Below are positions 2,323 through 27,988 of a stretch of 64,000 nucleotides of DNA, piece after piece. The notes under the pieces were generated by a model. That model was not told where the DNA came from and did no database searches. It saw nothing but the letters and a program-made list of their open reading frames with translations. A program made the position numbers and the translations under genes. The stretch lies in contig QPMI01000500.1 in NCBI GenBank assembly GCA_004431415.1, positions 6,294-70,293 on the forward strand, read 5' to 3'. How positions within the stretch are numbered: the stretch's first letter is position 1; each line of letters starts with the position of its first letter. Source of the DNA: Cyanophora paradoxa CCMP329. Its lineage: Eukaryota; Plantae; Glaucophyta.

Positions 2323-2365
2323 GGCTTTTACTATATGGATTTATAAAATTCCTGATAAGTAAAAG

Positions 2366-9906: not shown

Positions 9907-10015
9907 ATTCTCGATCAAAACAAATCTTGTAGAAATTGATTTGATCGGAGGCAAAAAAATGACAGCTTTCTTCCCTCTTTTTTAAAACTGTACCTATATA
10001 TCGAGACAGTATCCC

Positions 10016-10064
10016 GACCCAAAACTACTTAAGGACTTGGCAAATAATAGGATATATATAAAAG
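10016..10064 (+). promoter_or_regulatory. Putative promoter: GACCCAAAACTACTTAA ... TATATATAAAAG
   Basis: Same motif upstream of the B helicase (~46376-46418, minus) and 47696; variants upstream of 13386, 13514 and 46824. Confidence 0.6.
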
Positions 10065-10124
10065 ACAATTCCTCCTTCCGAAATTATTTTCTTCGTTAAA
10101 GGTAGAAGTCCCCCAAAATCGAAA

Positions 10125-12719
10125 ATGAACAAAATCGAGAAATTCGCCACCCCTGTTGAAAATGCCACATTCCTTAGTACTCTCATTGGTGATCGCAACA
10201 AGGTCACCCATGTATTTGATTCTGCCGAAGATGCCCTTGAAGCCATTGATAATAGCAAGGTTAAGACCTGGGCTGAATGCATTCAGCCTGAACAAGTCAC
10301 CAGAGTTTACCTGGACCTGGATAAATTCGCTGATTTGAAGGAGAACATTGCTGAAAACTATGCTGAGGCGGAAGCTGTTGTAAGAGAGATGAGAGATAAG
10401 CTATGGAAGCGATCTGGGACCACTTCGATTAACGATATTGCTGTTGCAGTTCGCCATAGAAGGGTTTATTTAATCAAGGAGGATGTCACCAAGTTCAAGA
10501 TCTCAGCCCACTTTATCATTAAATCGCTTGCATGCAAACATGAAGATATCCCCAAGCTTTTCAAAGCAATGGGTTTGGTGAAAAATGAGGATTATGACAG
10601 TGGAGTTTACAGCTCCACACAGAACCTTATCTGCCTCAATTGCTGCAAAGGTGAGACTCTGGATGCTCAAAATAAATCGAAAAAAGATGTTGATAAAAAC
10701 GTTTGCTTTAAGAAATTCGTTGACTGTGACAAAGTGTTAATGCGAAATGAGGACTTCTTTGTATCTTACTTCTCAGCTACTACTAAACTTGTGGATGAAT
10801 CGAATATTTCTGCATTCGCAAATTATAGCCCTGAGCCAAAACCAGTTAAAAAGGAGCCGAAAAGTGATAAAGTGAAGACTGAGAAGGTAGAAGCTGAAAA
10901 AGACACTGAACCCGAAAATCCTGTTACTTTCGAGCTGCTACAAAGTGTTATAATGGGTCTGAATGGTGAGAGAGCTAATGAGTATAAAACTTGGATTGAT
11001 GTAGGACTGGTCATCATCAATGTTGGGGAAGACAACAAGTTCACCCCTAAAATGCAAGCTGAACTCTTCCACCAATTCTCAGAACAGAGTGACAAGTATG
11101 ATTATGATGAATGCCAGGAGAAGTTTACACAACTTCGCAGAAGCAAGAAGAAGGCTGAGCCTGGCAAAGTGTTGACCTTCAAATCCTTGGTTTATTGGTT
11201 GAGCAAAGATAACAATGAGCTTTTCAAGGAACTCTTCCCCAAAAAGTATGCATTCCTACCAGAGGACACAGATGAAATCGATTACAAGACTGCAAGTATC
11301 CCTCCTTTGGCTGAACATTACAATGTGCATAAGAGGTATTTCAATGCTCGAATGCATCATGTTGAAAATGTTGGTTGTGTGATGCTCTGGGATGAACAAC
11401 TACTTTGCTGGATGCCCAAAGATATTGGGAAGCTCTCTACAAAGCATTTCCCCCACTTGATGCATAAGGTGATTGTGAATGAGGGGACAGATAATGAGAA
11501 AGAGAAATGGGAGCAATCATTTAGGAAATGGATTGTGGATCCAACAGCCACAAGATCAACTTACATGGATTTCCTCCCACCTCCTGCTACTCTCAGTGCC
11601 AAATGCAAGTCTGTATTTAATCTCTATCCAGGAATGAAGGTTGACCATCAGCAATTCGAAAATGCTCCAGAGGATGTAACTGCTGAGATGATTAAGCCTT
11701 TCCTAGATCACTTGTTCTTAATGTCTGGTGAGGATCAAAATACTTACGAATATCTATTGAAATGGTTTGCCCACATGCTGCAAAAGCCTGGGGAACTCAA
11801 TGGAGTATCCATAATCTTCATTGGTGAACAGGGTACTGGTAAGAATGTGTTGGTTGATACTTTTCAAAAGAAGATACTTGGAGATGCCCTGAGTTATGCA
11901 ACTGGTAAGCCAAAAGAGGATCTGTTTGGTCGATTTGCCCACAATAGAGAGGATAAGATCTTGATTGTTGTCAATGAAGCCTCAGGCAAGGACACATTCG
12001 AAAATAATGATATGCTTAAGGATCTCATAACTTCTGATAAGATTGTAATTGAACACAAAGGGATAGATTCATACACAAAAAGCAACTTTGCCAGGATTAT
12101 ATTCACCAGCAATAATAACATTCCAGTTAAAATTGAAGCTGGAGATAGGCGATTTGTGGTTGTTGAAGTTAGTAAGAAATTCGCAAAGGATAGGTCATAC
12201 TTCCTTCCACTTGTCAAATGGCTAAATGATCACTGCAATATTCGAAACATTGCCCACTATTTGAGAACCAAAGTTGACTGTGAGGATGTGAACTGGATTG
12301 CTGATAGACCCCTCACAAATAAATACTATTTAGCCCAACAGGTATGCGCCCCAATCATTCTTATGTTCACTAAGTGGCTTGTGGATCGAGGCTTAATTTC
12401 CGAGAATAAATGCAAGTCTGGTAGCCTTGTGGAAACCTGGAAGTGGTTCCAGGAGTTCATTACCAGCAACAAATATAAAAACGATTATAATAGTCGCAGA
12501 TATTATACTGAAATGAGAAGTGTTACATATATTCAAGTGAAAACTACAAATGGCAAACAATACTATCATTTCCTATTCCCACAAGTATTTGAGGAATTCA
12601 GAAAGATGAAACTTGTAGATGATGAGACTATTGAGGAGGAAGCTAATCCAAGGATGAAGCAAGACCTACCTGCTGCTGATCCTGATGCATCAGATTATGA
12701 TTCTGATGTTGAAGTTTAG
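10125..12719 (+). CDS. AEP primase + PriCT-2 + SF3 helicase (type A)
   Basis: RVYLDLD and KISAHFII (AEP), EYKTWIDVG...FSEQSDKYD (PriCT-2), GEQGTGKN, IVVNEA, IIFTSNN, DRRFVV. Confidence 0.92.
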   Translation: MNKIEKFATPVENATFLSTLIGDRNKVTHVFDSAEDALEAIDNSKVKTWAECIQPEQVTRVYLDLDKFADLKENIAENYAEAEAVVREMRDKLWKRSGTTSINDIAVAVRHRRVYLIKEDVTKFKISAHFIIKSLACKHEDIPKLFKAMGLVKNEDYDSGVYSSTQNLICLNCCKGETLDAQNKSKKDVDKNVCFKKFVDCDKVLMRNEDFFVSYFSATTKLVDESNISAFANYSPEPKPVKKEPKSDKVKTEKVEAEKDTEPENPVTFELLQSVIMGLNGERANEYKTWIDVGLVIINVGEDNKFTPKMQAELFHQFSEQSDKYDYDECQEKFTQLRRSKKKAEPGKVLTFKSLVYWLSKDNNELFKELFPKKYAFLPEDTDEIDYKTASIPPLAEHYNVHKRYFNARMHHVENVGCVMLWDEQLLCWMPKDIGKLSTKHFPHLMHKVIVNEGTDNEKEKWEQSFRKWIVDPTATRSTYMDFLPPPATLSAKCKSVFNLYPGMKVDHQQFENAPEDVTAEMIKPFLDHLFLMSGEDQNTYEYLLKWFAHMLQKPGELNGVSIIFIGEQGTGKNVLVDTFQKKILGDALSYATGKPKEDLFGRFAHNREDKILIVVNEASGKDTFENNDMLKDLITSDKIVIEHKGIDSYTKSNFARIIFTSNNNIPVKIEAGDRRFVVVEVSKKFAKDRSYFLPLVKWLNDHCNIRNIAHYLRTKVDCEDVNWIADRPLTNKYYLAQQVCAPIILMFTKWLVDRGLISENKCKSGSLVETWKWFQEFITSNKYKNDYNSRRYYTEMRSVTYIQVKTTNGKQYYHFLFPQVFEEFRKMKLVDDETIEEEANPRMKQDLPAADPDASDYDSDVEV

Positions 12720-12727
12720 GTTTATTC

Positions 12728-12911
12728 AAAAGTGGACTCATAGTTGACTCAAATTTATCATAAAAGACCCAAACAGTCTTTTATTTATGGTTTATTTATC
12801 GATTAGGTTGACTAAGTGGGGAGAGTTGACTCATTTTTTCACAGATTCTTAAAGAGGACTCTGCCCTAAAAAGAAATAAAAAGTGCCTCAACTCCACCCA
12901 CTAAGTCAACT
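12728..12911. repeat. Origin/iteron-like motif 1 (GTTGACT), directly downstream of the type-A helicase
   Basis: AAAGTGGACTCA.AGTTGACTCA, then GGTTGACTAAGTGGG..GAGTTGACTCA 78 bp later, then inverted TCAACT/AGTCAAC. Same motif and spacing in the TIR at 19473/19551. Confidence 0.75.
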
Positions 12912-13386
12912 TAACACTTAGATCACTTCTACATACTGGACATTTGAATTGATCTTTTGATGGCAGCTTTGCTGTGCAGTCACCACATACTTGACTATTA
13001 CACTTGAAACAACTCCATGTCCCAGGGGGTTCATCAGTTTCCAAACAAACAACACATGTTTTATCCTCTTCCCTCTCAAAAGATATGATGACATCATGTA
13101 AGAACGATTTCAGTATACTCTCGGAAATCGATTGAGGAACTAAGTAACCACTGTCTTTAAAGAGAATAAAGCAAAGTTGCTTTCTCTCAGAAGAATATCC
13201 ATTCACCACATTCAAGTTATGAAACATTTTGACATGCTTTTCAGTATAAGAAATCACATAAATTTTGTTTTCATTCAATGAGCGATCTAAGAGATCTCTG
13301 GTTGCATCAGTAAACATACTTGTGGCATCCTCAACAGGTATTGAGGTCAAAGATTTCAGAGTTTCTATGATATCTTGGGAGTTCAT
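12901..13386 (-). CDS. RING-finger protein (putative E3 ubiquitin ligase)
   Basis: CVVC...CFKC...CGDC...CPVCR. Confidence 0.8.
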   Translation of the reverse strand: MNSQDIIETLKSLTSIPVEDATSMFTDATRDLLDRSLNENKIYVISYTEKHVKMFHNLNVVNGYSSERKQLCFILFKDSGYLVPQSISESILKSFLHDVIISFEREEDKTCVVCLETDEPPGTWSCFKCNSQVCGDCTAKLPSKDQFKCPVCRSDLSVKLT

Positions 13387-13513
13387 CGATCCTTTCTACT
13401 AGTAGAAAAGAAAATAATTTTTCCTATATATCCTTTTTTCAAATTCGCTTTAAGCCATTTCTAAAAAATGATTTAAGAGATAGAAAAATATATTTATATG
13501 TTAGAAGTAAGAC

Positions 13514-13864
13514 ATGGCTGGAACAGATCATGATTCTGGATCGATCTATATGATTGAGAGTCAGGAAATGAACAAAATCTACATAGGGAGAACCTCACAA
13601 AAAGTACAAATCCGATGGAAACAACACAAATCAGGTCAAATGCCATCCACAGCAGACCTATGCAAGGCTGCTGATGTGAAGTTTTCAGTCTTGTATTCAA
13701 GTAAGAAGGGTGGGCATGAAGACCTTATGAACAGAGAAGCATACTACATGTATCTGTTTGAACCTTGGATAGTCAATTTACAAAAACCGAAATCGAGATT
13801 TAGGATAAATAGGTTTTTGCGATTCCATTCAGAGGAAGCCAATGGATCCATTAAAACATTTTAA
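13514..13864 (+). CDS. GIY-YIG endonuclease
   Basis: SIYMIES...IYIGRT...IRWKQH...RE. Confidence 0.85.
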   Translation: MAGTDHDSGSIYMIESQEMNKIYIGRTSQKVQIRWKQHKSGQMPSTADLCKAADVKFSVLYSSKKGGHEDLMNREAYYMYLFEPWIVNLQKPKSRFRINRFLRFHSEEANGSIKTF

Positions 13865-13925
13865 AAATGCGTTTAGAACATCCTAAAATAAAATATCCCC
13901 TTAGAATAGGAACAAGTTAGGGATA

Positions 13926-16900
13926 ATGCCCCGAATTACCAACAAACTCATAAGGGAGAAGAAATGGGAACTCATGGGATTGCTGGGAACACTTTATGCA
14001 GCCCATGAAATAACAGAGGCTGAATATGACCGGGAAATAGATTTAATTGCAAAGGGTAGACCCACTTTAGCCAGATTAACCAGAAAAGCAAATAACCTAT
14101 ATGATAAAATTGAAACCTTGGATGAACTGGATAGGCTTAGGCAAATAGAACCAGAGGCAGAAGATGGAACAGCCATGAATGAATTATATCGCTGGCTCAC
14201 TTACAGAGCCAGAAGGGAAGTTGTTGTAGATGTGATTGAATTCCTGGACAGAATTGCTACATCCCTTCCAGATCGATTAAAGCAGGGTTTAGATCAATTC
14301 AGGGCAATCAAGGTTCGCTTGTCTTTTATCTGCAAGTTCGTAAAAGTAAGCAATCCGCAGGTTTGGATATCGAAATACATTTACAGCGATTATTTTGTAC
14401 TAACCAGATCGAGAAATATTCGAACTGAGCTGAATAAAGCAGCCCAAATATGTCAGGAGCAGATGAATGTGGTTGATAGCTATCGCTTAGAAAGAATTGA
14501 AATACTCAGAGTGGCTATTATGAGTTATGCTCCAACAGGTGGATGCTTTCTACAAACCCCAGAGTGGATTGCTAGGAAGAGAGCCACAGTAAATATTCGA
14601 AATATTGATGATTCCTGCTTCGAAAATGCAATTTTGGCATATATTCACAGAAAAGCGATAAACTCCCATAAGAGGAATGAGCTTTCACAGTATCGCAAAT
14701 GGAAATACTCAGCAATCGCTTATAATCCGCTGGCTCTCAATTTCGACAATATCCCATTCCCTGTTGCCTGTGATGCTGAAATAATTGATAAATTCGAATC
14801 TCAAAATGCAGGCATCAGCATAAACATATTTGGAATGGATCGAGATGTTATATATCCCCTACATCAATCCAGCAACCCAGGCAGAAAGCAAAAGATTAAT
14901 CTCATGCTCATTCATGATGATGAAGGGAATGGTCATTATATTACAATCATGTCCCTTTCAAGATTATTGAAAGTAAACCATGAAACATACAATGATCAGA
15001 AGTTACACTACTGTGACACATGCTTATCTCGATTCAGGTCTGAGGCTAAACTCACTGCTCATGTGGACTCAAATAGATGCATTGATTGGAGACTCTCAAA
15101 GGGAATCACACCAAAACCTGAGACCACCATAGAGTTTGGACTGAAAAACCTCAGGAAAACTGTTTGGCTTCCTGTTGTGGTTTACTGCAAGATTGAACAT
15201 AGAAGCATCCCCATTGATGCATCAAAATCTAAGAGGGAAGTCTCAGCAGTCAACCTGAGAGTAGTCACTGGGGCAGATGTTCAGGAGTTTCGATTTGAGG
15301 GTCAGGATCCAATGGGAGGTCTCTTTGAATGCTTGGAGTCCAAAGCAAGAGAACTAATCGATTTCCTGTTTACCAACATTCCTATGAATGAACTCACAGA
15401 TGAGCAGAAAGCAATTTACAGAGCTACCAAACACTGTTACCTTTGCAGTGAGAGGTTCACTAAGGAGAACTTCAAATGCAGGGATCATGATCACCACACA
15501 GGTCATTATATTGCTCCTGCATGCAGAAACTGCAATCTCCATAGGAGAATCTCAAAGCAAACCAAAGTTGCAGTAGTTGTTGACCAAATGGATGACTGTG
15601 GGACATTCATTTTCAGAAAAATAGCAGGCATGGGTGATAAAAATCGAATCGAAATCCTTTCGAAAAACTTTGATCAATACCTTTCATTGCAATGGGGTCT
15701 TTACAAGTTCATTGATGCAAGCAATTTCATGGATTTTGGAGCTGCTGATGTAGATGAGTTAATGAACAAATTCCAAGCCTTCAGAAGGCTTTCACACTCA
15801 GTATATGGACTTGACCCAGTTCATTATGTATCTGCACCTGGGTTATCTTGGGATGCTATGCTTAGGACCACCGAGGCAAAAATAGAGCTTATAAGTGATG
15901 TAGAGCAATACGAATTTGTTGAGAGGGGAATCAGGGGTGGCTTTGCAACAATGCCTTGTAGGTATGCTGAGGCTGATGGTGAGAACTCCCACATTATGCT
16001 GTTTGATGCTAACAACTTGTATGGCTACTGTTTGAGTCAGCCAATTCCAGTTGGTGATTTTAGATGGGAGACCGAATTCAACCCACAAGATAACAGATCC
16101 AGTTTCCTGGAAGTTGATCTGGAATACCCAATAAGGCTATATCTAGACCACAGTGATTTCCCCCTAATTATTAACAAGAAAATAGTAGAATATGCGGAAT
16201 TATCACAATATCAAAAGAGCCTGTTGGATCTTTCAGGAGAAGAGCTTGATAAGACCCCTAAGCTAACTGCAACCTTTGGTTCTGTGGCAAACTATGTGAT
16301 TTCTGAGCCTCTTCTGCAATATCTGTTGGACAAAGGTGTGAAATTAAAGAAAATTCACAGGGTCCTCTCATTTACTGTGGCTCCTGTAATGAAACCCTAC
16401 ATTGAGCTGAACACTGATATGAGAAGGAAAGCAGTGAATAAATTCGAGGCTGATTTCTATAAACTCATGAATAACTCAATCTATGGGAAATGCATTGAAT
16501 CATGTAGAGGTAGATCTGTGGTTAAGATTGCAAACAGTGAGAAACTGTTTATGAAATATGCAGCTTCCCCATTGGTGAAATCAACAAGTCCCATAAACGA
16601 AAAAGCAGTTGCCTTTGAGTTTTACACAAAGCATGTGAAACTAGATAAGCCTGTTGCAATTGGGGCTTATGTTTTGGATGCAGCCAAACTGCATAATTAC
16701 CAGTTCTTCTATGATACTGTAAGGTCCCAATGGACAAAAGCAAAGTTACTATTCCATGATACTGACTCCTTCTGTCTATATATTGAATCTAAGACCTTAC
16801 AAAAAGATATAGAGAATATATCTTATGCCTTGGACCTAGGGGGATCTAACAGAATGACCCCAGGTAAATACAAAAATGAAATGCCTGGCTCTGCAATATT

Positions 16901-17171
16901 GGAGTATGTAGGTCTGAGAGCAAAAGTTTACAGTTTCAGAACTGCTGAGATTGAGAGGAGTAAGCTCTCTGGGACTTCCACTGAGGAACTCCAATTTAAT
17001 GATTTTAAGCAGTGTTTATTTGCAGGTATCAGCAAGACTGTGACTGCAAAGCAGAAGAGAAGGGCAGATCACACAATAATAGATACCGTGAGTAGAAGGG
17101 TTGCCCTAAACTGCTTTGATGCAAAGAGATACATCTTACCAGATGGTATTAATTCTGTTCCTTTTAATTAA
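13926..17171 (+). CDS. polB: Protein-primed family B DNA polymerase (terminal protein/vOTU-like N-terminus, EndoVII-like insert)
   Basis: DANNLYG, KLMNNSIYGK, HDTDS, GLRAKVYS. CYLC...RDHDHHTG...ACRNCN insert. DDSCF/GHY motifs. Confidence 0.96.
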   Translation: MPRITNKLIREKKWELMGLLGTLYAAHEITEAEYDREIDLIAKGRPTLARLTRKANNLYDKIETLDELDRLRQIEPEAEDGTAMNELYRWLTYRARREVVVDVIEFLDRIATSLPDRLKQGLDQFRAIKVRLSFICKFVKVSNPQVWISKYIYSDYFVLTRSRNIRTELNKAAQICQEQMNVVDSYRLERIEILRVAIMSYAPTGGCFLQTPEWIARKRATVNIRNIDDSCFENAILAYIHRKAINSHKRNELSQYRKWKYSAIAYNPLALNFDNIPFPVACDAEIIDKFESQNAGISINIFGMDRDVIYPLHQSSNPGRKQKINLMLIHDDEGNGHYITIMSLSRLLKVNHETYNDQKLHYCDTCLSRFRSEAKLTAHVDSNRCIDWRLSKGITPKPETTIEFGLKNLRKTVWLPVVVYCKIEHRSIPIDASKSKREVSAVNLRVVTGADVQEFRFEGQDPMGGLFECLESKARELIDFLFTNIPMNELTDEQKAIYRATKHCYLCSERFTKENFKCRDHDHHTGHYIAPACRNCNLHRRISKQTKVAVVVDQMDDCGTFIFRKIAGMGDKNRIEILSKNFDQYLSLQWGLYKFIDASNFMDFGAADVDELMNKFQAFRRLSHSVYGLDPVHYVSAPGLSWDAMLRTTEAKIELISDVEQYEFVERGIRGGFATMPCRYAEADGENSHIMLFDANNLYGYCLSQPIPVGDFRWETEFNPQDNRSSFLEVDLEYPIRLYLDHSDFPLIINKKIVEYAELSQYQKSLLDLSGEELDKTPKLTATFGSVANYVISEPLLQYLLDKGVKLKKIHRVLSFTVAPVMKPYIELNTDMRRKAVNKFEADFYKLMNNSIYGKCIESCRGRSVVKIANSEKLFMKYAASPLVKSTSPINEKAVAFEFYTKHVKLDKPVAIGAYVLDAAKLHNYQFFYDTVRSQWTKAKLLFHDTDSFCLYIESKTLQKDIENISYALDLGGSNRMTPGKYKNEMPGSAILEYVGLRAKVYSFRTAEIERSKLSGTSTEELQFNDFKQCLFAGISKTVTAKQKRRADHTIIDTVSRRVALNCFDAKRYILPDGINSVPFN

Positions 17172-17174
17172 GAG

Positions 17175-18560
17175 ATGCCAGCAACTGGAAGAATAGTTAG
17201 GAGAACCACTGAGCAACTACAAGGTAACCTACTGCCTATCACAGTTCCAAAGGAGGAAAAAGGGGAATCTCGAATTGTCAAAAAATCAGAGATGAAAGAG
17301 CTTGTCCCTGTGGAGATCCCAGTTGCTATTGCAGTGAAAGAAACTAGCAAGATTGCCAAGAGATTCTATGATGTGAGGACTGGTTACAAAGGGCTTCAAG
17401 CTATGAGGGCTGAGTTACCAGATGAATCCTATAAGCAGTTGCAAGAGTTCTATAAAAAACAAGAGGTAGTTCAGATCAATGCACCTGCTATATCTAGGAA
17501 GAGAGATCCCATGGTTCCAATAAGGCAACCCCTTGATACCTATGTGATTGATTTGCTCTTTTTCCCAGCTTATAAGAAACAAAACAATGGCTATGATACC
17601 TTTATGACTGCTATGGAATCAACACTGAGAACTGGATATATCATACCTATAAGAGATAAATCAGCTCTCACTACATTAGCTGCATTTAAGCAGCTTGAAA
17701 TGAGAGTGGCAAGACCCATAGTAAAAGTTCAATCAGATGCTGGGAGTGAGTTCCAAAATCGAATATTCCAGGAGTATTTATCTAGTAAATTCATAGAACA
17801 CCAAGTGAGTGGAACTGCAGACCATAGAAGCCAAGGTCGAATTGAAGCCTTTAACAAGCAGATTAAGAGACTGATCACAAACTACTGCATAGCTAATAAC
17901 ACAGCTAGATTCTTTGATGTGTTAGGTGATATTGAGTATAATTACAATAATACAGTTCACTCAGCTACTAAGATGAAGCCAGGCGAAACTACAGAGGAGC
18001 ATTATAGGTATATAGTGGGATTAGAAGATGAAAGATTCAAGAAATCAATAGCTTACCTTGATACCATGCAGCCAGGCATGTTTGTTAGAGTGAAAGTTGA
18101 GAAAAATGCCTTTGCTAAACAGGGTAACAATTGGTCTAGGATGGTTTACACTGTTGATAGTAGGGAAGGCTTTAAGTTTAAGCTAAGGAGTCCCACTGGT
18201 GAGATCATAGAAAACAGGTTTGCTTTCCATGAGCTGTTACCTGTGAATTCAGTTGAGTATCTGGAAACACCTACAGTGGATGCATTAGAGCAAGCCAAAG
18301 AGGAAGCCAAGGTTGATGCTGCTATAAGGAGAGAAGGCATAGAAGCTGCTAATGAAGTCCCAGATAAGCCTTTGATAGAGGCTAGAAAGGAGAAGACTGG
18401 CAAGGTTAATAGGGAACTCAAAAAGCTCACTATAGCAGGGACACAGAAACTTTCTGAGGTTAATAGCCAGAGATGGTATAATGACTTTCAGACTACTAAG
18501 GAGTCATATACAGCCCCTAAACCTCAGAGAACACTAAGAGAAAGGACCAAAACTAGCTAG
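17175..18560 (+). CDS. int: Retroviral-type (rve) DDE integrase
   Basis: YVIDLLF, VQSDAGSEF, QGRIEAFNK, YNNTVHSATKMKP. Confidence 0.95.
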   Translation: MPATGRIVRRTTEQLQGNLLPITVPKEEKGESRIVKKSEMKELVPVEIPVAIAVKETSKIAKRFYDVRTGYKGLQAMRAELPDESYKQLQEFYKKQEVVQINAPAISRKRDPMVPIRQPLDTYVIDLLFFPAYKKQNNGYDTFMTAMESTLRTGYIIPIRDKSALTTLAAFKQLEMRVARPIVKVQSDAGSEFQNRIFQEYLSSKFIEHQVSGTADHRSQGRIEAFNKQIKRLITNYCIANNTARFFDVLGDIEYNYNNTVHSATKMKPGETTEEHYRYIVGLEDERFKKSIAYLDTMQPGMFVRVKVEKNAFAKQGNNWSRMVYTVDSREGFKFKLRSPTGEIIENRFAFHELLPVNSVEYLETPTVDALEQAKEEAKVDAAIRREGIEAANEVPDKPLIEARKEKTGKVNRELKKLTIAGTQKLSEVNSQRWYNDFQTTKESYTAPKPQRTLRERTKTS

Positions 18561-19456: not shown

Positions 19457-20565
19457 GATTCCCCCTATAATTAAAGTGGACTCAAGGTTGACTCATATTA
19501 ATCGTAAAAGTAGTAATAGTATATGGATTTTGTTACGAATTCAATGCAAGGGTTGACTAAGTGGGTTGAGTTGACTCAAATTTCACAGGAAATAACAATG
19601 AATCAGAGTATAAAATGCATTTTTTGAATCAACTACACCAACTAACACTGAGAAAGTAGTTTATATCATATAGTATTACCATATATGGTTTGTCAGGCAC
19701 TATAATATAGTTGTCAGGCCCTAATATAGTATGTCAGGCATTGTCAGGCACCTTTTTAGAAAACTTTTATAAAATTGAAATTTCATTGTTAATCCAAACA
19801 ATGACTTAGCCAAAATAAAATACTTTATGAAAATCGATAGATTTAATGCCTGACAAATAAATGCTGCCTGAAAGATTTAACACCAACTAACACTGAGATT
19901 TTCACAATATATGAGGTCCTTACTGAATATGGTTTGTGTGACAGGTGTGACAGGTTTATCCCGTGGATTTTAAAAATCAATTTCTCACTAGGACTTTCCT
20001 TGGGATTGACCTGTCACACCTGTCACACCTGTCACACCCAAAATCCTAAGGGTCCCCCCTTAGACTCAACAAAACAATGATAAAATCATATAAGTTTCAT
20101 GTATAATTACGATTGAATTCAATAAGAGATCGATTTGTTAATATAAACAAATGAATCATTTATGGATCTTAATCGAGTTAAGCGATATATTTCCGATTAA
20201 ATGAATTAAATTTAATTAAATTTAATCGAGAAAGTACATGAATATAATATCGATTAAATCAATTAACAAACAGACCAATCACACATAGTAAAATGCGGAG
20301 TTTTAACCAGAGGCAAGATCTAATTGAGATTCAGTTATATTATTCGGAAATATATACAGATTATCGATTAACTCAGTAAGACTAATCGGAAAATAAGAGA
20401 AATTTACGATAAAATATCGAAAAGAATACAAAATAATCGAAATAAATGAATATTCGATAAGATATACACAGATTATCGATTGATTGAAATAGAATATACG
20501 AGATATATCAACAAAATCAATTAAGATTAAGCCGAGGGTTAAAACTCCGCATTTTACTATGTGTG
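19457..20565. repeat. Right TIR of element A
   Basis: Reverse complement of 26503-27386 and direct homolog of 53394-54444. Confidence 0.92.
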
Positions 20566-21137
20566 GCGCCGCACGCGCGCGCGCGCGTGCGCAGGACGTG
20601 ACGCTCAGGCTCAGTTCGGACTGCGTCGATGCCCTCTCTCAGCGGTCGTTGCGCGCCTGGAGCGGCGTCCGGACCCTGCACCTGCTCACGGATGTGTACG
20701 GCTGGGCGCTCCCCGCCCGCTTCCTCGCGGTGCGTGCGCGCGTCGCCCCGTGCAGCACGTGCAGCCGCAGCGCATCGATTCTCACCCGCACCCGTCCACA
20801 GCGCGTGGCGTCCGAGACGCCCGACCTGAGGGAGCTCGCAGTGGCGGGCGAGCTGGCCGGGGCCCTCCCGCTGCCCGCCGGCGTCCCCGCCGCCCTCGGC
20901 GGCCGCCCCCGCCGCCTGCCGGCGAACGCGGTCGACCCCCGCGCCAGGAAGGCGGCCCATGGCCAGGCCCGGCAGCGCGCCCAGCAGGCCGTGCGCCCGA
21001 TCGCGACGATCGCGACCCGCGCGCGCGTGATTCGCGCTAGCGCGGCCCTCGAGCATGACGCATATATTTGCCGGCCGCAGGAGCTCGAGAGCGCCCTTGG
21101 CATCCGAGTCGAACCTTACTTTCGTTCAGATTTTTGA
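20566..21137 (+). other. Very GC-rich, probably host coding fragment (weak LRR-like pattern), interrupted by element A
   Basis: Sharp composition shift; open frame with VRTLHL / LRELAV motifs. Confidence 0.45.
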
Positions 21138-21167
21138 ATGCAAATACGAAATTCTTTCTTATGAAAA

Positions 21168-21885
21168 AAATGAGATAGTGGGGGTTCCAGCCCACCCACC
21201 TCTTTCTCACCCTCACTCCTCCAAACCACCCCAACCCACACACTCCAACGCCTTCCAACACACATTCTCTTCCATCCCTTCGTTACGTCTACCACCACAA
21301 CCTCTCCAAACCAACCATCCAGCAACCGCTAGGTAGTATCTAACGTCTAGTCCGATCGATTTTGCAAAAGATATAGCAGTGATTTTAGGCGGACCCCCAA
21401 AGCGCCGGTCTCAGAATAATCTTCAGATACAGCTAGACGTTAATTTTGTGTACTTTGAATCTAACAGAGAAAACATGTTTAGCTCAATTCTAGACGATAT
21501 TAATGAGTACAATGAAGCTAACAGAGGAAACACGTTTAGCTCAATTCTAGACGTTAGTTGTGTGTATTTCGAATCAAATGAGATAGTGGGGGTGCCAGCC
21601 CACCCCCCTCTTTCTCACCCTCACTCCTCCAAACCCACCCCAACCCACCCACTCCAACGCCTTCCCAACCACCACTTCCGTCCACTCTCTCCTTACGTCT
21701 ACCACCTTCCTCTCCCTCTGGTCTACCTCTCCTTCCAAACAGCAACCGCTAGGTAATATCCAACGTCTAGACCGATCGATCTTGCAAAAGATATAGCAAT
21801 GATTTGAGGCGGACCCCCAAAGCGCCGGTCTCAGAATCATCTTCAACATCATTTAGACGTTAATTGTGTGTATTTCGAATCTAAA
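21168..21885. repeat. Two ~300-bp direct repeats (period ~408 bp) with C-rich tracts and ~57-bp TAGACG subrepeats; probable terminal region of C
   Basis: AAATGAGATAGTGGGGG..CCAGCCCACCC at 21168 and 21576; GCGGACCCCCAAAGCGCCGGTCTCAGAAT twice. Confidence 0.8.
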
Positions 21886-21978
21886 AAACAAAGAGGTTTC
21901 AAGGGTTATGCTACACGTAATTACTATATCATCGGAATCTAATTACATACTCGAGTTCAGGTTCTAGCTAGACGCTAA

Positions 21979-22611
21979 TTATTCCCACCGATGACGTAGT
22001 CCAAGTTTAGTGAAACCACTTAACATTGGTTTGTATTCGATCGACGGCCCGACAGGATCAGCGCTGCTAGAGGCGATGCGCAAGATCGATGTGTTTGCTA
22101 CAGGTAATTCGCTAGCATTCTCATCCACCTCGGGGATTGCGACGATCGTCTTAGCAGGAACAGCAGATGATGGAGGAGAAAGCTTTTTATCAATTTTGGT
22201 CTTAGCAATCGGTTCGTTTAAAATCTTGTTTTCCATTTTAGTCTCAACCGCTATACCAGCAATAAGATCACCAGCACGCTTCTTTGAAATTGTTTTCAAC
22301 CCAGTCACTGTTTTAATGAAATATCTGCTACGATTACCAGTCTCTGATACATACAGCGGACCATCGTCAGTATCCTTCAGTTTACTAGTTTTGCTTTTCT
22401 TTGTCCGCGAATTTGGGATCTTATCTAGAATAGCGTTTTCGTCGGCAGTAAGAGCAAAATCGATAGACGCACCCTCACCACCAGCAGTCCGACGAACTAA
22501 AGGATAGGATTCAGTATCACCGCTCAAAAATTCAATATTATTCTTTTTATTGGGTGAGTTTGTAAGTTTTCTAGAAGCCGAAGGCAAGTAGCCACTTGTG
22601 CTACGCACCAT
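21979..22611 (-). CDS. Hypothetical protein (element C)
   Basis: 210-aa ORF from MVRSTSG, downstream of the penton. Confidence 0.55.
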   Translation of the reverse strand: MVRSTSGYLPSASRKLTNSPNKKNNIEFLSGDTESYPLVRRTAGGEGASIDFALTADENAILDKIPNSRTKKSKTSKLKDTDDGPLYVSETGNRSRYFIKTVTGLKTISKKRAGDLIAGIAVETKMENKILNEPIAKTKIDKKLSPPSSAVPAKTIVAIPEVDENASELPVANTSILRIASSSADPVGPSIEYKPMLSGFTKLGLRHRWE

Positions 22612-22681
22612 TTGTTTTAAATAAGGAACAGAAAAAAGTCGACAGACAAGCTGCCTCGGCTGCGCATTCGCGAAAGTGAAT

Positions 22682-23557
22682 TTAAGCAAAACTGCGATCA
22701 AACGGATGAAACTCACTATCTGTGTTTCTGATTGACGAGCGAAGTGATGCCTTTGTGTATGAAGAATCTTCAATTTCGAACTCGATAACGAATGAGAATT
22801 CAGTGTTAAAAGCTGCAGTAAATCCATTAAAATAACGTATTGACACATCAAGTTGTTCTAACTCAGAATTATGATCGACGGAAACAGGAACACGTTCATC
22901 AGATGTATATTTGATAAGCTCTCCAAATTTCGCATCGATATGAATCTTTGCCAACGATGTGTTTGTCCAGTTATTTATTGTGTGAATCGAACCACGAATC
23001 TGATCGATATGTAGGAAGAGATAAGTATGATAAAGAAGATCAACAGGTATATCGCCAACGATAGCAAACGCATAATCAACAGCATCAACTGTGATTGGAG
23101 TATCCAGCTGTTCTGCGGAATCTGTAACAGCCTTTGTGAAGCCGAGCAGATTTGCGAGTTCAAGAGTGGAAAACGTCAGAGTAAACTCCGATTCACACAA
23201 GATTGTGATTTTCATTGAAACATCATCAAAAACCGTTAAGAACTTGCGTTGGTAAGTACTCCCCAAATAACTGTATTGTTGTGTTTTCAAAAGAACGTTC
23301 ATATAATTCGCAAGAGATGTTGGAGTATATGATCCAGCTCGAAATAGGTTCGTTCTGGTTTTAATTACATTGCTAGGATCGAGCGTAATGGTTGTTATTG
23401 AAGCATCAGCAGCTAGATTATACATATTGTGAAAAAGTTCTAGCGATTCAATTCTAGCCGACTTCACGTTTGCTAACGCCCGAGGCAGATTAATTTTGAA
23501 ATTCGAGGACGTGCCTTCGAACCGATCTCTAGAATCAACATTTACGCGGAGTTTCAT
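22682..23557 (-). CDS. Minor capsid protein (penton), element C
   Basis: VNVDSRDR..SSNFKINLPRALANVKSARIESLE; C-terminal FSFVIEFE. Confidence 0.85.
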   Translation of the reverse strand: MKLRVNVDSRDRFEGTSSNFKINLPRALANVKSARIESLELFHNMYNLAADASITTITLDPSNVIKTRTNLFRAGSYTPTSLANYMNVLLKTQQYSYLGSTYQRKFLTVFDDVSMKITILCESEFTLTFSTLELANLLGFTKAVTDSAEQLDTPITVDAVDYAFAIVGDIPVDLLYHTYLFLHIDQIRGSIHTINNWTNTSLAKIHIDAKFGELIKYTSDERVPVSVDHNSELEQLDVSIRYFNGFTAAFNTEFSFVIEFEIEDSSYTKASLRSSIRNTDSEFHPFDRSFA

Positions 23558-23600
23558 CTTTACAACAATATACGTGAAATATTCTGTAATATAATATCAA

Positions 23601-24830
23601 ATGGCGCAAGCAGGAACTACTCTGAAAGAGCTCCTAACAACCAAAGGATCGAACGAGCTTTATCTATCGCCAGGTCTAACTGTCGGTGTTAGCCCAAAGT
23701 TTAAGCCTTTCCTTGAGACGATCCGTCCGCGAGGCAACTCATACGGATTCGCACAGACTGCTGCTTTCGACCTTCCGCGCAAGCAACTTCTAAATGGCGT
23801 CTCCCTATATTTTAAGGTAACAGTCGCTGGTGGAGCTGCCGCTTCGGTTCTTCCTAATGGTGCTGGTGCATTTATTGAAAACGTACGCTTTGTTCATGGA
23901 TCTTTCAAAATGGTAATTCCCGGTGATTGGCTTACAGTGAACGCACTGATTGATAACAGCGTCGCATCCGCCCAAGCTTTTGCTAGCAGCTACGGCTTTG
24001 GAAAAGACGCAGCTCTAGAGATTCTCGATGCTAGCCGAGAGTACGTGCTGAAGATCCCATCACAGCTTTGGGACAATTCATATTTCCCTCTGCTAGCACT
24101 TGCGGATATGCCAACCGTCGAGATTGACTTCCGTTCGGCTGGTGTGATTGGAACTGTTGCTGATGCTATTGCGACTCTAACGGATTGTGCCCTGGTTTGT
24201 CAGTTCGTGAATATTCCTAGCGAAGAGGCAGAGTCTATGCTAAAATCTGCGAACGAGTCTGGCGGTATTAGAATTCCCTTTACTGAAATCATTTCAAAGC
24301 GCTCACGCCAGCTTAAGACGGACGACGCAGGAAACGCTGTCGAAATATCCCTTGCTAACGTTAGCGGCCTTGTGCACGCGATCCTGATGACAGTGCGTAA
24401 TGCGAATCACCTGGGCACTCGCAATCATAATTCATTTGCCGGTAACGGTAACGCTTTGAAGATTGATTCGTTTGAGATCATGCACAATAATCGCACTCTC
24501 GATATCAGTAATAAGCCAATCTCTGGATTTGTTTCGAGCTGCTATCATATCCCAACTCAATATCGCGGAGCAACAACTGGTAATTCAGCCCTTGGTTTTG
24601 AAGACGGAAATGTCTATGGTATTGTGCTTTCGAAATCTGGCAAAGACTCCCTCCACAACGCTGTCCTCGGCTACACAGACTTCTTCAACTCAAGCAGCAG
24701 CTACTGCTCCCTCACTGTCACCGGATGTACAAACACCGCACCAGCTGTAGTCGATTTTCACGTCCTGCGCCACAACGTTCTCGTAATTAATTCATATCAA
24801 ATGTCGACTCTAAAAGTAAGTAACTTCTAA
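23601..24830 (+). CDS. Major capsid protein, element C
   Basis: Intact 409 aa, homologous to the A/B MCP. Confidence 0.88.
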   Translation: MAQAGTTLKELLTTKGSNELYLSPGLTVGVSPKFKPFLETIRPRGNSYGFAQTAAFDLPRKQLLNGVSLYFKVTVAGGAAASVLPNGAGAFIENVRFVHGSFKMVIPGDWLTVNALIDNSVASAQAFASSYGFGKDAALEILDASREYVLKIPSQLWDNSYFPLLALADMPTVEIDFRSAGVIGTVADAIATLTDCALVCQFVNIPSEEAESMLKSANESGGIRIPFTEIISKRSRQLKTDDAGNAVEISLANVSGLVHAILMTVRNANHLGTRNHNSFAGNGNALKIDSFEIMHNNRTLDISNKPISGFVSSCYHIPTQYRGATTGNSALGFEDGNVYGIVLSKSGKDSLHNAVLGYTDFFNSSSSYCSLTVTGCTNTAPAVVDFHVLRHNVLVINSYQMSTLKVSNF

Positions 24831-24831
24831 A

Positions 24832-25536
24832 ATGGATATCAAATTGTTTGATCCAGCAGAAGTAAAACTTCCTAAACGGTTCTTGTTTGTCGGCCCCACC
24901 AACTCGGGCAAAAGCACCTACGTAAAACACGTATTAAATGCTGTAGCAAATCAGCTAGACGATATTTACGTCTTCAGCACAACGGCATTTACAGAACAGT
25001 GGGACGATACCACTCGCAAGAGCAATATTTATGAAGAATGGGATACAGTTTTGGTTGAAGAACTTTTAGAACGTCAAAAAGAAAGACGACGCAAGAAAGA
25101 TGATCGAAAAATAGCAATTGTTTTAGATGACTTGCTTGATAATGACCTAGTAAACGTCCACAGTGACCGATTAATGCAAAAGCTTTTTACTAGCGGAAGA
25201 CATTACAATATATCGCTCTTTATCACGACACAACGTCTATGTGGCATTAGTCCGACGATTCGGCGAAATTGCGAATATGTATGCTTTTCGTCGATTCTAT
25301 CGAATATTAAAGAGTTCGATTGCGTCTTTGCCGAATACAACGCCGGAGCGAGTCGAGCAGTTTTAATGCGTCTTTTCCTTGAATGGGGTCATTCGTATCA
25401 GGTTTTGATATTTGAAGCCGCGACCGTGGACCGCGTCTACTCTGTTGATAAATCTTCTGGAGATTTTTCGGCTCTATCAAGCTTTTTACACGCAAGAAAG
25501 CGGCCCGGTCGAAAGCCGGCAACCAATCTTGTCTAA
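24832..25536 (+). CDS. Packaging ATPase, element C
   Basis: GPTNSGKS, IVLDD, SGRHYNISLFITTQ. Confidence 0.95.
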   Translation: MDIKLFDPAEVKLPKRFLFVGPTNSGKSTYVKHVLNAVANQLDDIYVFSTTAFTEQWDDTTRKSNIYEEWDTVLVEELLERQKERRRKKDDRKIAIVLDDLLDNDLVNVHSDRLMQKLFTSGRHYNISLFITTQRLCGISPTIRRNCEYVCFSSILSNIKEFDCVFAEYNAGASRAVLMRLFLEWGHSYQVLIFEAATVDRVYSVDKSSGDFSALSSFLHARKRPGRKPATNLV

Positions 25537-25675
25537 GCAACCAACTAGTATATTCTGGTTTAGCTGAGGCAATCCACAAATAGCTTGCGCCCTTGTAAAT
25601 GCCGAAGCTGATGCAGTGGCATGGTGAAAGTTGTGATCTCCCCGGCCAACATATTTCTAAATCTTCAATATCCAT
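25307..25675 (-). CDS. Small protein with FGxYKG...P.Y..W (DUF3820-like) motif
   Basis: ISFGIYKGASYLWIASAKPEYTSWL; 3' part overlaps the ATPase on the opposite strand, so the end is uncertain. Confidence 0.4.
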   Translation of the reverse strand: MDIEDLEICWPGRSQLSPCHCISFGIYKGASYLWIASAKPEYTSWLLRQDWLPAFDRAAFLRVKSLIEPKNLQKIYQQSRRGPRSRLQISKPDTNDPIQGKDALKLLDSLRRCIRQRRNRTL

Positions 25676-25699
25676 CAAAAAGATAAAGGTGTTATTCCT

Positions 25700-25948
25700 T
25701 CAATTAAACCGTGATTTCGATGTTTGATCTTTATAAGCATCTTCGAATGAATCATAATAACCGATTATCTTCTTGCAACCATTGATTTTGGTTTCTGCTT
25801 TCCATTTATCGGTTCGTTTGTCAAAGGAAACACGGACATAGTGGTTGGTGGGTCGGTGGATTCTCCTCCGGCAATGTTTCAGTAGAAGATATTCAATGTG
25901 TTGCTGGATTGCAAAGGCAACGTATATCGGAAGGTTGATATCGGTCAT
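25700..25948 (-). CDS. AP2-like DNA-binding domain protein
   Basis: VSFDKRTDKWKAETKINGCKKIIGYYDSFEDA. Confidence 0.7.
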   Translation of the reverse strand: MTDINLPIYVAFAIQQHIEYLLLKHCRRRIHRPTNHYVRVSFDKRTDKWKAETKINGCKKIIGYYDSFEDAYKDQTSKSRFN

Positions 25949-26086
25949 CTCTTTTTCGTTACTTTTACATATTGCAATATATTTAAGGCATATTCACGCG
26001 ATTCTACCTTCGAATTCTCTTTGCGTAATATCCAGCGGGTTTGGCGCCTGCTCTGAGCAATGGTTCAGCAGCAATTTCGAGTTTTT

Positions 26087-26502
26087 TTAACTCACGATCC
26101 TTCCGTTTTGACCCGCATACGTTTTCGTTTCAACGAGACCCTCTCTCCGAAGCTGACGATCTTGCTTCGATCTAGCAGTCGCTCTTTCAATCTTAGACTG
26201 GTCAGGTAGTTCTTGTGGCGCACGAATCTCGGATGGTTTAACACGTCTAGAAATTTCCACACCTTGCTTTGTAATTAACCTAACACGGTTCTTATCAACG
26301 CCAGCAACAACGTAGGTCTCTTTGCTTGGTTTCGCCAGACCCTTTGCAAACACGCTTGGCTTAGGCTCAAGTATCTTCACCTCCGAACCTGGTTTAGGCA
26401 TATTTGTGTTCTCTCGTTCAATATCGTTCTGTCGCTGTCGAACTTGATGTAGCTGCTCGGCAACCTGTGTTTTTTCACGCATCCACGTTGGTGATCGCTC
26501 TT
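26087..26502 (-). pseudogene. 3' fragment of the element C integrase, cut by element B
   Basis: PGSEVKILEPKPSVFAKG..PSKETYVV and LRREGL align with PGMFVRVKVEKNAFAKQGNNWSRMVYTV and IRREGI of the A integrase. Confidence 0.75.
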
Positions 26503-27386
26503 CACACATAGTAAAATGCGGAGTTTTAACCCTCGGCTTATCTTAATTGATTTTGTTGATATATCTCGTATATTCTATTTCAATCAATCGATAATCTGTG
26601 TATATCTTATCGAATATTCATTTATTTCGATTATTTTGTATTCTTTTCGATATTTTATCGTAAATTTCTCTTATTTTCCGATTAGTCTTACTGAGTTAAT
26701 CGATAATCTGTATATATTTCCGAATAATATAACTGAATCTCAATTAGATCTTGCCTCTGGTTAAAACTCCGCATTTTACTATGTGTGATTGGTCTGTTTG
26801 TTAATTGATTTAATCGATATTATATTCATGTACTTTCTCGATTAAATTTAATTAAATTTAATTCATTTAATCGGAAATATATCGCTAAACTCGATTAAGA
26901 TCCATAAATGATTCATTTGTTAAATAAAACAAATCGATCTCTTATTGAATCCAATCGTAATTATACATGAAACTTATATGTTTTTATCATGTTTTAATGA
27001 TTCTAAGGGGGGACCCTTAGGATTTTTGAAATAATTGGGTGTGACAGGTGTGACAGGTGTGACAGGTCCATCCCAAGGAAAGTCCTAGTGAGAAATTGAT
27101 TTTGAAAATCCACGGGATAGACCTGTCACACCTGTCACACAAACCATATTCAGTAAGGACCTCATATATTGGTAAAATCTCAGTGTTAGTTGGTGTAGTT
27201 GATTCAAAAAATGCATTTATACTCTGATTCATTGTTATTTCCTGTGAAATTTGAGTCAACTCAACCCACTTAGTCAACCCTTGCATTGAATTCGTAACAA
27301 AATCCATATACTTTTACTACTTTTACGATTAATATGAGTCAACCTTGAGTCCACTTAAATATAAATATAATATAATAGGGGGAATC
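26503..27386. repeat. Left TIR of element B
   Basis: Inverted relative to 53394-54444 and 19457-20565. Confidence 0.92.
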
Positions 27387-27589: not shown

Positions 27590-27988
27590 TCAAAACGGGA
27601 ATCTATCATGTTTATGTCTCTCAGTCTTCTCAAATGTTAAGAAATTCATTGTTTTATCGATCTCATCTGCAACTGCTTGTGTTTTATGCTGAGCTTCTTT
27701 ACCACAACTGAATATATCAATTGCTAACATGCCTTCATTGGAATAACAATGAGCTGTGCAATGGCTTTCATCTAATAGCAGAACCAATGCAAAACCAGGA
27801 GGTGATAGTTTGCCATCAAATATCTCACAATGCTTATGAACAATCCTAATACCTTGTCTCAATACTGCTTGTTCAAGGGTTCCCATAATCCAATTACCTA
27901 GGAAGCTAACATGCTCATAACCTGTTGCTATAGCTGATTTAGCCTTGTAATCAAGCATAACATGAAAGCCTCTGTATTTAGTCTCCAT
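27590..27988 (-). CDS. speD: S-adenosylmethionine decarboxylase-family pyruvoyl proenzyme
   Basis: HVMLD, GFALVLLLDESHCTAHCY (E|SH self-cleavage site), AIDIFSCG; 132 aa, bacterial/archaeal size. Confidence 0.87.
   Translation of the reverse strand: METKYRGFHVMLDYKAKSAIATGYEHVSFLGNWIMGTLEQAVLRQGIRIVHKHCEIFDGKLSPPGFALVLLLDESHCTAHCYSNEGMLAIDIFSCGKEAQHKTQAVADEIDKTMNFLTFEKTERHKHDRFPF

Follow-up and report, generated by a model that had tools for sequence, protein, structure and literature searches.

The 64,000-nt stretch of Cyanophora paradoxa CCMP329 analyzed here (contig QPMI01000500.1, positions 6,294 to 70,293, forward strand; hereafter the window) carries two ~28-kb copies of a Polinton-like element, A and B, in the same orientation, as recognized from open reading frames (ORFs), Pfam matches, and repeats. 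The right terminal inverted repeat (TIR) of element A contains a module of short repeated words (iterons), which we call X. We regard as evenly balanced the proposition that X is one unit of a subterminal tandem array of cassettes in this TIR and that it works, or once worked, as a predicted origin of the Staphylococcus aureus pathogenicity island (SaPI)/P4 type for a D5/VapE-type helicase whose specificity neither helicase of the window is predicted to have. The origin-cassette reading appears plausible and rests on an outside test of the sister cassette Y: Y-type iterons lie 3' of viral helicase genes, one viral locus (L054) gives a comparable example for X-type iterons, and heliA, the helicase of element A, is predicted to fold like a SaPI Rep.

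Module X is the 226 bp (19654-19879) between two exact direct copies of a 19-mer, ACACCAACTAACACTGAGA, in element A. Its parts are as follows:

19635-19653, + strand: first copy of the 19-mer, start of cassette X
19654-19690, + strand: leader of X, ending in ...TTACCATATATGGTT; word and offset match the Y and Y'' leaders
19691-19749, + strand: left iteron arm, TGTCAGGC four times, as 2.5 units of ~21 bp and one 10-bp unit
19750-19847, + strand: AT-rich spacer, 98 bp, 20% GC
19848-19873, - strand: right arm, with one exact inverted iteron (19848-19855) and one 7/8 copy (19866-19873)
19880-19898, + strand: second copy of the 19-mer, start of cassette Y

The word TGTCAGGC occurs five times in the 64-kb window and always within X, at 19691, 19712, 19732, and 19742 on the forward strand and at 19848 on the reverse strand (the exact copies read as TGTCAGGC or GCCTGACA by strand), and the sixth iteron, GCCTGAAA at 19866-19873, keeps 7 of the 8 letters. 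Left-arm iterons start 21, 20, and 10 nt apart. An 8-mer with five copies was seen in none of 2000 dinucleotide shuffles of X. In the predicted single-strand fold, the two iterons of the right arm pair with the last two of the left arm (-28.9 kcal/mol, z -4.1). An earlier note, made from the letters of the window alone, had reported the 19-mer at 19635 and 19880 with four iterons, an AT-rich spacer, and inverted copies in between, and all of this was found as described. Rfam gave no match for X, a scan for bacterial promoters and terminators stayed at chance level, and the spacer weakly resembles the stretch upstream of the first 19-mer (7 of 300 shuffles reach the score).

X is placed in its context by the three TIR copies of the window:

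19470-20527, + strand: right TIR of element A, homologous to the B TIRs at 26502-27360 (reverse complement) and 53444-54445
19470-19634, + strand: module W in the TIR of A, GTTGACT iterons at 19487, 19552, and 19570; present in 3/3 TIR copies
19899-20045, + strand: cassette Y, with leader, GTGTGACAG twice, spacer, and CTGTCACAC three times
27035-27196, - strand: cassette region of the left TIR of B, one 19-mer and one Y (G-type), no X
53564-53917, + strand: cassette region of the right TIR of B, 19-mer and Y' (GTGTCACAG type), then degenerate 19-mer and Y''; no X

From the inside out, the TIR consists of W, a linker, one or more cassettes, a small palindrome (CTAAGGGTCCCCCCTTAG), and ~480 bp of common terminal sequence, and the outer terminus in A reads ...ACTATGTGTG at 20527. 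The cassette order is X-Y in the right TIR of A, Y in the left TIR of B, and Y'-Y'' in the right TIR of B. In each cassette the 19-mer (degenerate before Y'') is followed by a ~37-nt leader, direct iterons, a spacer rich in AT, and a set of inverted iterons; the 19-mer and leader are common to X, Y, Y', and Y'', but the cores differ, as the earlier note had seen in describing X as the same architecture with another core. The core of Y, the neighbor of X, is GTGTGACAGG. Between Y (19936-20037) and Y' (53620-53918) the center base of the 9-mer differs, G versus C, in every copy of both arms (C in 10/10 copies in the right TIR of B), so the inverted symmetry has been kept by concerted change. The leader word TTACCATA[T/A]ATGGT-TTGT lies at offset 22-40 in X and 21-40 in Y'', and ATATGGTTTGT lies at offset 29-40 in X and 28-39 in Y. 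Local alignment of X with W, Y, and the internal modules described below scores marginally (6 to 12 of 300 shuffles reach the score), and the case for homology is built on the common leader offset instead. To judge from sequence comparison, X is a paralogue of cassette Y, with the same 19-mer, leader, offset, and layout.

This arrangement bears on a quite different explanation, in which X is a foreign insertion resembling a miniature inverted-repeat transposable element (MITE) with a 19-bp target-site duplication, or else a local assembly error. The perfect 19-bp direct repeat at both ends of X and the apparent empty site in B fit an insertion: the 19-mer occurs once in each B TIR (27178-27196, - strand; 53564-53582, + strand), X is absent there, as first noted, and in an alignment of the three TIR copies the right TIR of A equals the B form plus exactly the X insert, with the 19-mer as the overlapping junction. 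X, however, lacks the features of a MITE or other transposon, since its ends carry no inverted repeats of their own, no second copy or relative of X exists in the window, and the flanking 19-mer also heads Y and Y' and, in degenerate form, Y''. The X leader is moreover homologous to the Y leaders, and independent sequencing runs reproduce both the sequence and its junction. We consider this explanation highly improbable. The 19-mer has four matches in the window at up to 2 mismatches, against none in 100 shuffles. Its positions bound the module exactly as the earlier note proposed, and the alignment places the module junction there. Because the 19-mer and leader are common to the cassettes, we interpret the 19-mer as a head conserved at the 5' end of each cassette and a ready substrate for unequal recombination, in preference to a scar peculiar to X or a target-site duplication.

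The stretch is present in 20 sequencing runs of one organism, and Logan contigs of four of these runs (X1, X2, X10, and X17) were aligned to it. X is not an assembly artefact because contigs of 4/4 runs cover it, at a summed depth of ~1000-3700, and cross its right junction with the 19-mer and Y (X17 record 24 and X2 record 29). X is multi-copy and polymorphic in the host genome, so the one-off duplication or assembly artefact that had been named as a possible refutation is excluded. The 25-nt host flank bin has a depth of 63-97 (0 in X17), which puts X at some ten times that level or higher, and common TIR parts reach 30-40 thousand; these depths are sums over contigs, rough to an order of magnitude, and are not copy numbers. 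As an order of magnitude, X would have some tens of genomic copies or fewer, in a few percent of TIRs. The contigs also hold several variant forms. An X-less form with the B-type skip from 19640 to 19885 was found in one X17 contig, two versions of 19746-19869 occur with 0 and 8 differences, and contig loose ends show extra inverted iterons upstream of X (X2), truncated X forms with a new left context at 19751 (X1, X2, and X17), and a TGTGACGCC cassette form. A further core, GTGTGACGCCTGTGACG, is present in another cassette. All 15 variant positions listed for X lie outside its 40 iteron positions (p ~0.05; 11 further variant rows of the stretch lie outside this count).

These variants are pertinent to a second alternative, that X is a decaying duplicate: a Y-type cassette copied in tandem in a TIR prone to recombination and surviving in a minor sub-lineage of elements, with iterons drifted from TGTCACAGG to TGTCAGG and without present function. 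The 19-mer and leader common to X and Y, the tandem duplicate with a degenerate 19-mer in the right TIR of B, the small share of TIRs that carry X, its truncated and variant forms, its weak right arm, and the pseudogenized state of the neighboring element B would all agree with decay. Yet the five iterons are letter-perfect while the leader and spacer of X have diverged from those of Y beyond alignment, drift would not give the same new word in all copies of both arms, the iterons are spared by 15/15 of the listed variants, and the same word stands next to a helicase gene in L054. On balance we think decay somewhat unlikely.

Two helicase genes and the iteron modules beside them give the cassettes their suggested function:

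10125-12719, + strand: heliA, intact 864-aa primase-helicase with PriCT_2 and DUF5906
12727-12915, + strand: internal W module, 8 nt 3' of the heliA stop
44059-46401, - strand: heliB, with Prim-Pol, D5_N, DUF5906, and a C-terminal piece, in four reading frames
43885-43985, + strand: internal Y-like module, ~75 nt 3' of the true heliB stop

The W core after heliA spans 12727-12840, with an inverted copy at 12897-12910. G- and C-centered types are mixed in the internal Y-like copy (43896-43974). W and Y, the other iteron types, do have copies immediately 3' of a helicase gene, which supports the reading of the earlier note. Elements A and B are ~94% identical over 907-9495/35044-43582 and 13889-18762/47769-52633 and wholly different in a ~4.3-kb replication module (9495-13889 versus 43582-47769), the whole module having been exchanged between otherwise 94% identical flanks. 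The A version comprises heliA with its 3' iteron module, a RING gene, a GIY-YIG gene (13514-13864), and, at 9580-9906, small ORFs for basic proteins; the B version comprises heliB, on the opposite strand, and a small ORF of its own (46573-46866). Since the W and Y-like internal copies lie inside the swapped module, each helicase travels with its site. A conserved AT-rich word (CCTTTTATATATATAGAAGAT.. or GGATATATATAAAAG) stands just upstream of replication-module genes (46375-46413, 47700-47738, 10046-10070, and 13413-13437) and is a likely promoter motif by its position and sequence; it is absent from the TIR cassettes, X included.

Residues 500-864 of heliA have 19,699 relatives at E <=1e-3 among 1.84 billion representative proteins, the best 44% identical, and a structural model built with 37 relatives as alignment reached a pLDDT of 89.4. 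Past the ATPase core, the model has helices at 269-282 and 291-300 and a beta hairpin at 304-317, which we read as a winged-helix-like C-terminal fold. Foldseek placed the NrS-1 C-terminal region first (E 4e-15), followed by SaPI PriRep1 with double-stranded DNA (7pds; E 1.6e-9) and then by the SaPI5 primase-helicase (7ola), C962R of African swine fever virus, and poxvirus D5/E5. HeliB matches the same C962R by sequence. A word-indexed protein search with heliA gave only four distant matches (the host's own proteins seemingly lie outside that database), and the related-locus search in IMG/VR found no relatives of heliA.

A complete IMG/VR scan for tandem Y pairs returned 51 loci, and Pfam was run on 79 of the 80 ORFs of at least 300 aa within 1.2 kb of a Y motif (one 3025-aa ORF was dropped for size). 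At 18 of the 51 loci, Y-type iterons, both direct and inverted, follow a primase/SF3-helicase ORF at a distance of 0-400 nt 3' of its stop, and nearly all of each locus's copies are found there. The helicase types of these 18 loci comprise VapE-like, DUF5906, D5_N, Prim-Pol, PriCT_2, Toprim_3, and NrS-1 HBD; they form 12 clusters below 40% identity, on contigs of 36-67% GC. Six other loci have a helicase in a different arrangement, with iterons at +619 (L231), inside the ORF end (four AAA_25 loci), or 5' (one DnaB locus), and the remaining loci are mostly coding repeats (collagen, PASTA). As a control, a close pair of TGTCAGGC in IMG/VR gave at least 118 new loci (78 of those listed at least 3 kb long), for which Pfam covered all 105 nearby ORFs of at least 300 aa. 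Among the matches listed, the 3' helicase arrangement was found at 0/118 loci (Fisher p = 4e-11 versus the Y pairs), and one D5-type helicase and four gp4-like genes were present, with the iterons 5' in each. The two counts, 18/51 and 0/118, therefore indicate that helicases of this family are widely partnered with TGTSACAGG arrays just 3' of their genes.

The Y cassettes of the window bear the same TGTSACAGG word as the viral loci. TGT[G/C]ACAGG iterons, tandem and inverted, are spread over IMG/VR loci L198-L243 (e.g., L201:8345-8560, L229:4987-5236, L217, and L241), and by sequence the word looks like a widely shared origin word of VapE/D5-type replicons. W-type pairs had a helicase at 2 of 120 IMG/VR loci, with the iterons 3' in both. 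In L429, on a contig of 31% GC, GGTTGAC[T/A]AA occurs four times from 12 nt after the stop, with AT-rich DNA and inverted copies. The other, L414, was set aside as a W-type helicase origin, its iterons looking like promoter -35 boxes, and only L429 counts.

For X-type iterons, 71 loci came from a complete IMG/VR scan for three TGTCAGGC at short gaps, and 97 ORFs in their vicinity were compared with Pfam. One of them, L054, encodes an 841-aa DUF5906/VapE-type helicase, with GCCTGACA at +8 and TGTCAGGC three times at +210 to +234 after the stop; between these two arms lie a 7-mer copy, a spacer of ~100 nt, and another 7-mer. We kept L054 as an example for its anatomy and not for its count. Over 869 aligned columns its helicase shares 38% identity with the helicase of L229, where the predicted 3' origin has eleven TGTCACAGG copies, and the two loci keep their iteron types apart (11/11 of one type in L229 and 4/4 of the other in L054). 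These sister helicases, 38% identical and with different 3' iterons, would therefore use the X-type and the Y'-type word, respectively.

Other occurrences of the word were recorded in passing. About ten loci of one phage lineage (L013, L017, L028, L038, L041, L050, L062, L064, and relatives) carry a TGTCAGGC triple 310-420 nt upstream of a gp4-like (Toprim_2 and DnaB_C) primase-helicase gene, with an SNF2-methylase gene adjoining; this is probably the origin of that lineage. One gene for a Rep of the circular Rep-encoding single-stranded (CRESS) type has an X-type triple ~110 nt on its 5' side. L116, a metagenome contig of 6807 bp, has eight TGTCAGGC with a 12-bp period at 2163-2254 and at least four inverted copies with the same period from 5605, 3.4 kb from the first array, and may be a small replicon with inverted iteron arrays. 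Two further probes led to unrelated sequences and were rejected: the 19-mer, whose 3 IMG/VR loci are all coding repeats rich in Thr and Pro, and the tight X iteron pair taken as an exact 18-mer (3 IMG/VR loci). No outside X-type locus is related to the element in the window, and among the 120 metagenome matches listed for the X pattern none resembles the TIR or any element protein.

The core of X, TGTCAGG(C), looks like the Y' core TGTCACAGG minus CA, and for this reason the partner of X may belong to the heliB/Y lineage, as a variant in specificity, instead of forming a third type of helicase. In this respect the earlier note's prediction of a third helicase type holds in one part and weakens in another: such a helicase is indeed absent from the window, where only heliA and the heliB pieces match helicase or primase families among 124 stop-to-stop ORFs of at least 95 aa, but the core is not wholly new. 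The similarity also raises a third alternative, that X is a working origin-type site that has no third helicase and is bound by a relaxed heliB-type (or heliA-type) protein accepting both TGTCAGG and TGTSACAGG. The X and Y' cores have TGTCA..GG in common, Y-type iterons accompany both heliA-like (PriCT_2 and DUF5906; L201 and L222) and heliB-like (Prim-Pol, D5_N, and DUF5906; L225) architectures, and G- and C-centered variants stand side by side in single viral loci, all of which would suit a tolerant protein. We nevertheless hold it to be unlikely, given that SaPI Reps are reported, in the accessible text of PMC9371898, to bind their own origin only and that the sister helicases of L229 and L054 keep their iteron types separate without exception. 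Together with decay, it is the chief competitor of the origin-cassette reading.

A fourth alternative denies the cassettes a role as helicase origins: they would act by taking on a hairpin or cruciform shape, or by way of other factors. They might then serve in end replication primed by a hairpin or in end resolution, in transcript 3'-end formation, as small-RNA precursors directed against helicase 3' untranslated regions, or as arrays for host transcription factors. X, Y, and Y' all fold far better than their shuffles (for Y, which can form a hairpin or cruciform, z -6.3, and for Y' z -10.4), and the center base of Y and Y' changed in both arms together. A preprint (10.64898/2026.07.28.741278) proposes, in its accessible part, hairpin priming from TIR palindromes, and microRNA-like Rfam matches occur on Y only, below threshold (35 bits versus a gathering score of 100). 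Several observations speak against it: the cassettes stand ~480 bp inside the terminus and not at it, W shows the behavior of Y although it has no hairpin, X lacks the promoter-like word seen at the replication genes, and the link of iterons to helicase 3' ends over 12 helicase lineages is unexpected for such roles. We judge this alternative to be decidedly unlikely.

The origin-cassette reading of X has a number of points against it, which we gather here. No helicase adjoins X, the nearest helicase stop (12719) being 6.9 kb away, and the right arm is weak, with one exact and one 7/8 copy. A helicase lies within 400 nt 5' of an X-type triple at 1/71 IMG/VR loci (L054); L008 and L033 have the triple ~800 nt downstream of a helicase and L029 has it 2.5 kb upstream, and these 4/71 helicase-adjacent loci, L054 included, are not above chance by counts. 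Among the matches listed, X triples in prokaryote genomes had a helicase match at 0/120 loci (78 of at least 3 kb), and the X pattern in metagenomes was helicase-adjacent at 0/120. The search for helicase-adjacent TGTCAGGC blocks proposed in the earlier note was thus answered in kind by one of the viral triples and by none of the metagenome matches listed. W and Y are both in all three TIRs whichever helicase the element encodes, and because A and B both carry them, the TIR cassettes do not track the resident helicase. The protein-primed PolB of the same element needs no internal origin. Finally, X is found in only a small share of TIR copies (~1-4 thousand versus 30-40 thousand in depth), and both the loose ends at 19751 in X1, X2, and X17 and a higher depth of the spacer bin fit decay.

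If X is an origin cassette, a self-loading primase-helicase would attach to it through a C-terminal winged-helix domain and bind the iterons on both sides of the spacer; two helicase rings, loading head to head, would melt this AT-rich stretch. In a cell with hundreds of element copies, any helicase type that is expressed could then act in trans to replicate TIRs with several cassettes. X could be gained or lost through recombination or slippage between 19-mers, or through exchange of cores between cassettes.

The closest known counterpart is the SaPI origin. According to the accessible text of Qiao et al. 2022 (PMC9371898), which summarizes Ubeda 2007, 2012 on the origins of SaPIs and phage-inducible chromosomal islands, it has 6-12 iterons directly downstream of rep around a central AT-rich region, each side holding two or more that are oriented opposite to those across the center; they are bound by the winged helix of Rep, a helicase that needs no separate loader. 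A 2026 preprint describes, in its accessible part, PriRep5 on its origin by cryo-electron microscopy. X has a similar number of iterons (five exact and one 7/8 in 226 bp) and an AT-rich center with iterons on both flanks (19691-19749, the 98-bp spacer, and 19848-19873); its opposed iterons number four exact copies on the left, but one exact and one 7/8 copy on the right. The place directly downstream of a helicase frame is not that of X but is that of the internal W and Y-like modules, and structural matches of the heliA model include PriRep1 (7pds) and the SaPI5 primase-helicase (7ola). X differs from SaPI origins in lying in a eukaryotic Polinton-like TIR 6.9 kb from any helicase and in being part of a tandem array with different cores and iterons of 8-9 nt spaced 10-21 nt apart. 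By analogy X would work like a SaPI-type origin, and it is likened and not assigned to that class because it has the anatomy but does not stand beside a rep gene.

Phage P4 has, in crr, a second cis site with the same repeats elsewhere on its replicon. In simian virus 40 and papillomavirus, the SF3 helicases large T antigen and E1 assemble into pairs of hexamers where short inverted repeats border DNA that is AT-rich or melts easily, although the domains that bind the origin are unrelated and there is one origin per genome. The initiators of pRN1 (ORF904) and P4 (alpha) combine a primase, an SF3 helicase, together with a winged helix, and stem-loop potential is present in all cassettes of the window. 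The accessible text of Berkner et al. 2014 (PMC4234260) places the pRN1 origin in a 100-nt stem-loop within 166 bp 3' of the PrimPol-SF3-winged-helix gene, gives the same arrangement for phage BIP-1, and has P4 alpha binding origin repeats by its winged helix. The origin thus lies just 3' of the initiator gene in pRN1 and BIP-1; X folds with a long-range stem, but away from any gene. These replicons differ in being circular or bacterial/archaeal with one origin type each, whereas the TIR of the window has several side by side.

Among related elements, Barth et al. 2024 (PMC11296320) proposed that the inverted repeats of Polinton-like viruses (PLVs) and virophages serve as the primase-helicase origin and that helicase modules are mobile, an idea that the A/B module exchange fits. 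In the accessible text of that study, Gezel-14T has a direct repeat of >300 bp in its TIR and again just downstream of the primase-helicase module, and GIY-YIG genes lie beside the helicase module, as at 13514-13864 here; the same text describes no iteron anatomy, no array of several specificities per TIR, and no link to bacterial satellites. The accessible part of the Halocafeteria preprint (10.64898/2026.07.28.741278) associates TIR palindromes of virophages and PLVs with non-PolB replication genes and includes elements with both PolB and a D5 primase-helicase, as in element A. Those palindromes lie at the TIR extremities beside target-site duplications and are read there as hairpin primers, in contrast to the window cassettes, which lie ~480 bp inside the TIR and are built of iterons. 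A cryptophyte PLV survey describes no TIR substructure in its accessible text. In the literature outside subscription journals and supplements, we found no description of iteron cassettes in PLV TIRs or of the TGTSACAGG iteron.

Further features of the two elements and their surroundings are:

1-20527: element A, left end outside the window
26502-54445: element B, complete span in the window
7358-8140: A32-type ATPase of element A (Pfam)
13926-17171: protein-primed PolB of element A (Pfam)
17175-18560: rve integrase of element A (Pfam)

Pfam matched all of protein-primed PolB (DNA_pol_B_2), rve integrase, and Pox_A32 ATPase as Polinton-like element genes, and ORFs and Pfam added a patatin lipase, a GIY-YIG nuclease, and a RING protein; no Pfam match names a capsid protein among the window ORFs. 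Element B is decayed, with PolB and helicase each split over several frames, and its two TIRs are complementary at 97-100% in blocks. The TIR/flank alignment showed no target-site duplication, which in Polintons measures 5-6 bp, at the flanks of B. The PolB of A has an endonuclease VII-like insert (residues ~492-538, window 14300-15600; weak Pfam match, E 2.5e-4), and the broken PolB of B has it too. Toward its left end, B encodes an S-adenosylmethionine decarboxylase-like ORF (AdoMet_dc, E 3e-11; 27590-27988), an unusual accessory gene. GC-rich simple sequence is found at 20560-21100. The 6 kb between the outer ends of A and B (20528-26501) hold another A32-type ATPase gene (24832-25536) and several unassigned ORFs; perhaps A and B inserted into a different virus-like element, of which this stretch is what remains. 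A Ty3-type retrotransposon (reverse transcriptase, RNase H, and H2C2 integrase; 60-66% GC) abuts the right end of B at 54183-57390.

We tentatively extend the origin-cassette reading to a possible, though less probable, wider view: that the TIRs are multi-socket origin arrays, in which each cassette is a predicted SaPI-type origin for a different helicase and X marks one specificity in this host. Cassettes would be gained, lost, and re-cored by recombination at the common 19-mer and leader, and the TGTSACAGG word and its 3' place would be common to bacterial phage and satellite replicons and to a eukaryotic virus-like element. With one predicted origin per helicase type, an element could therefore be copied in trans by any resident helicase. 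For the replication of PLVs and virophages and the role of their long TIRs, the literature, in its accessible text, offers hypotheses. The present locus gives testable pairs of helicase and site (heliA with W and heliB with Y) together with an orphan X, and the end-repeats of a eukaryotic element here repeat the anatomy known from bacterial satellite origins that have been studied by experiment. Were the cassettes origin sockets that can stand in for one another, this would explain why these elements so often swap replication genes and how they cross-mobilize, and helicase specificities would be readable from TIR sequence.

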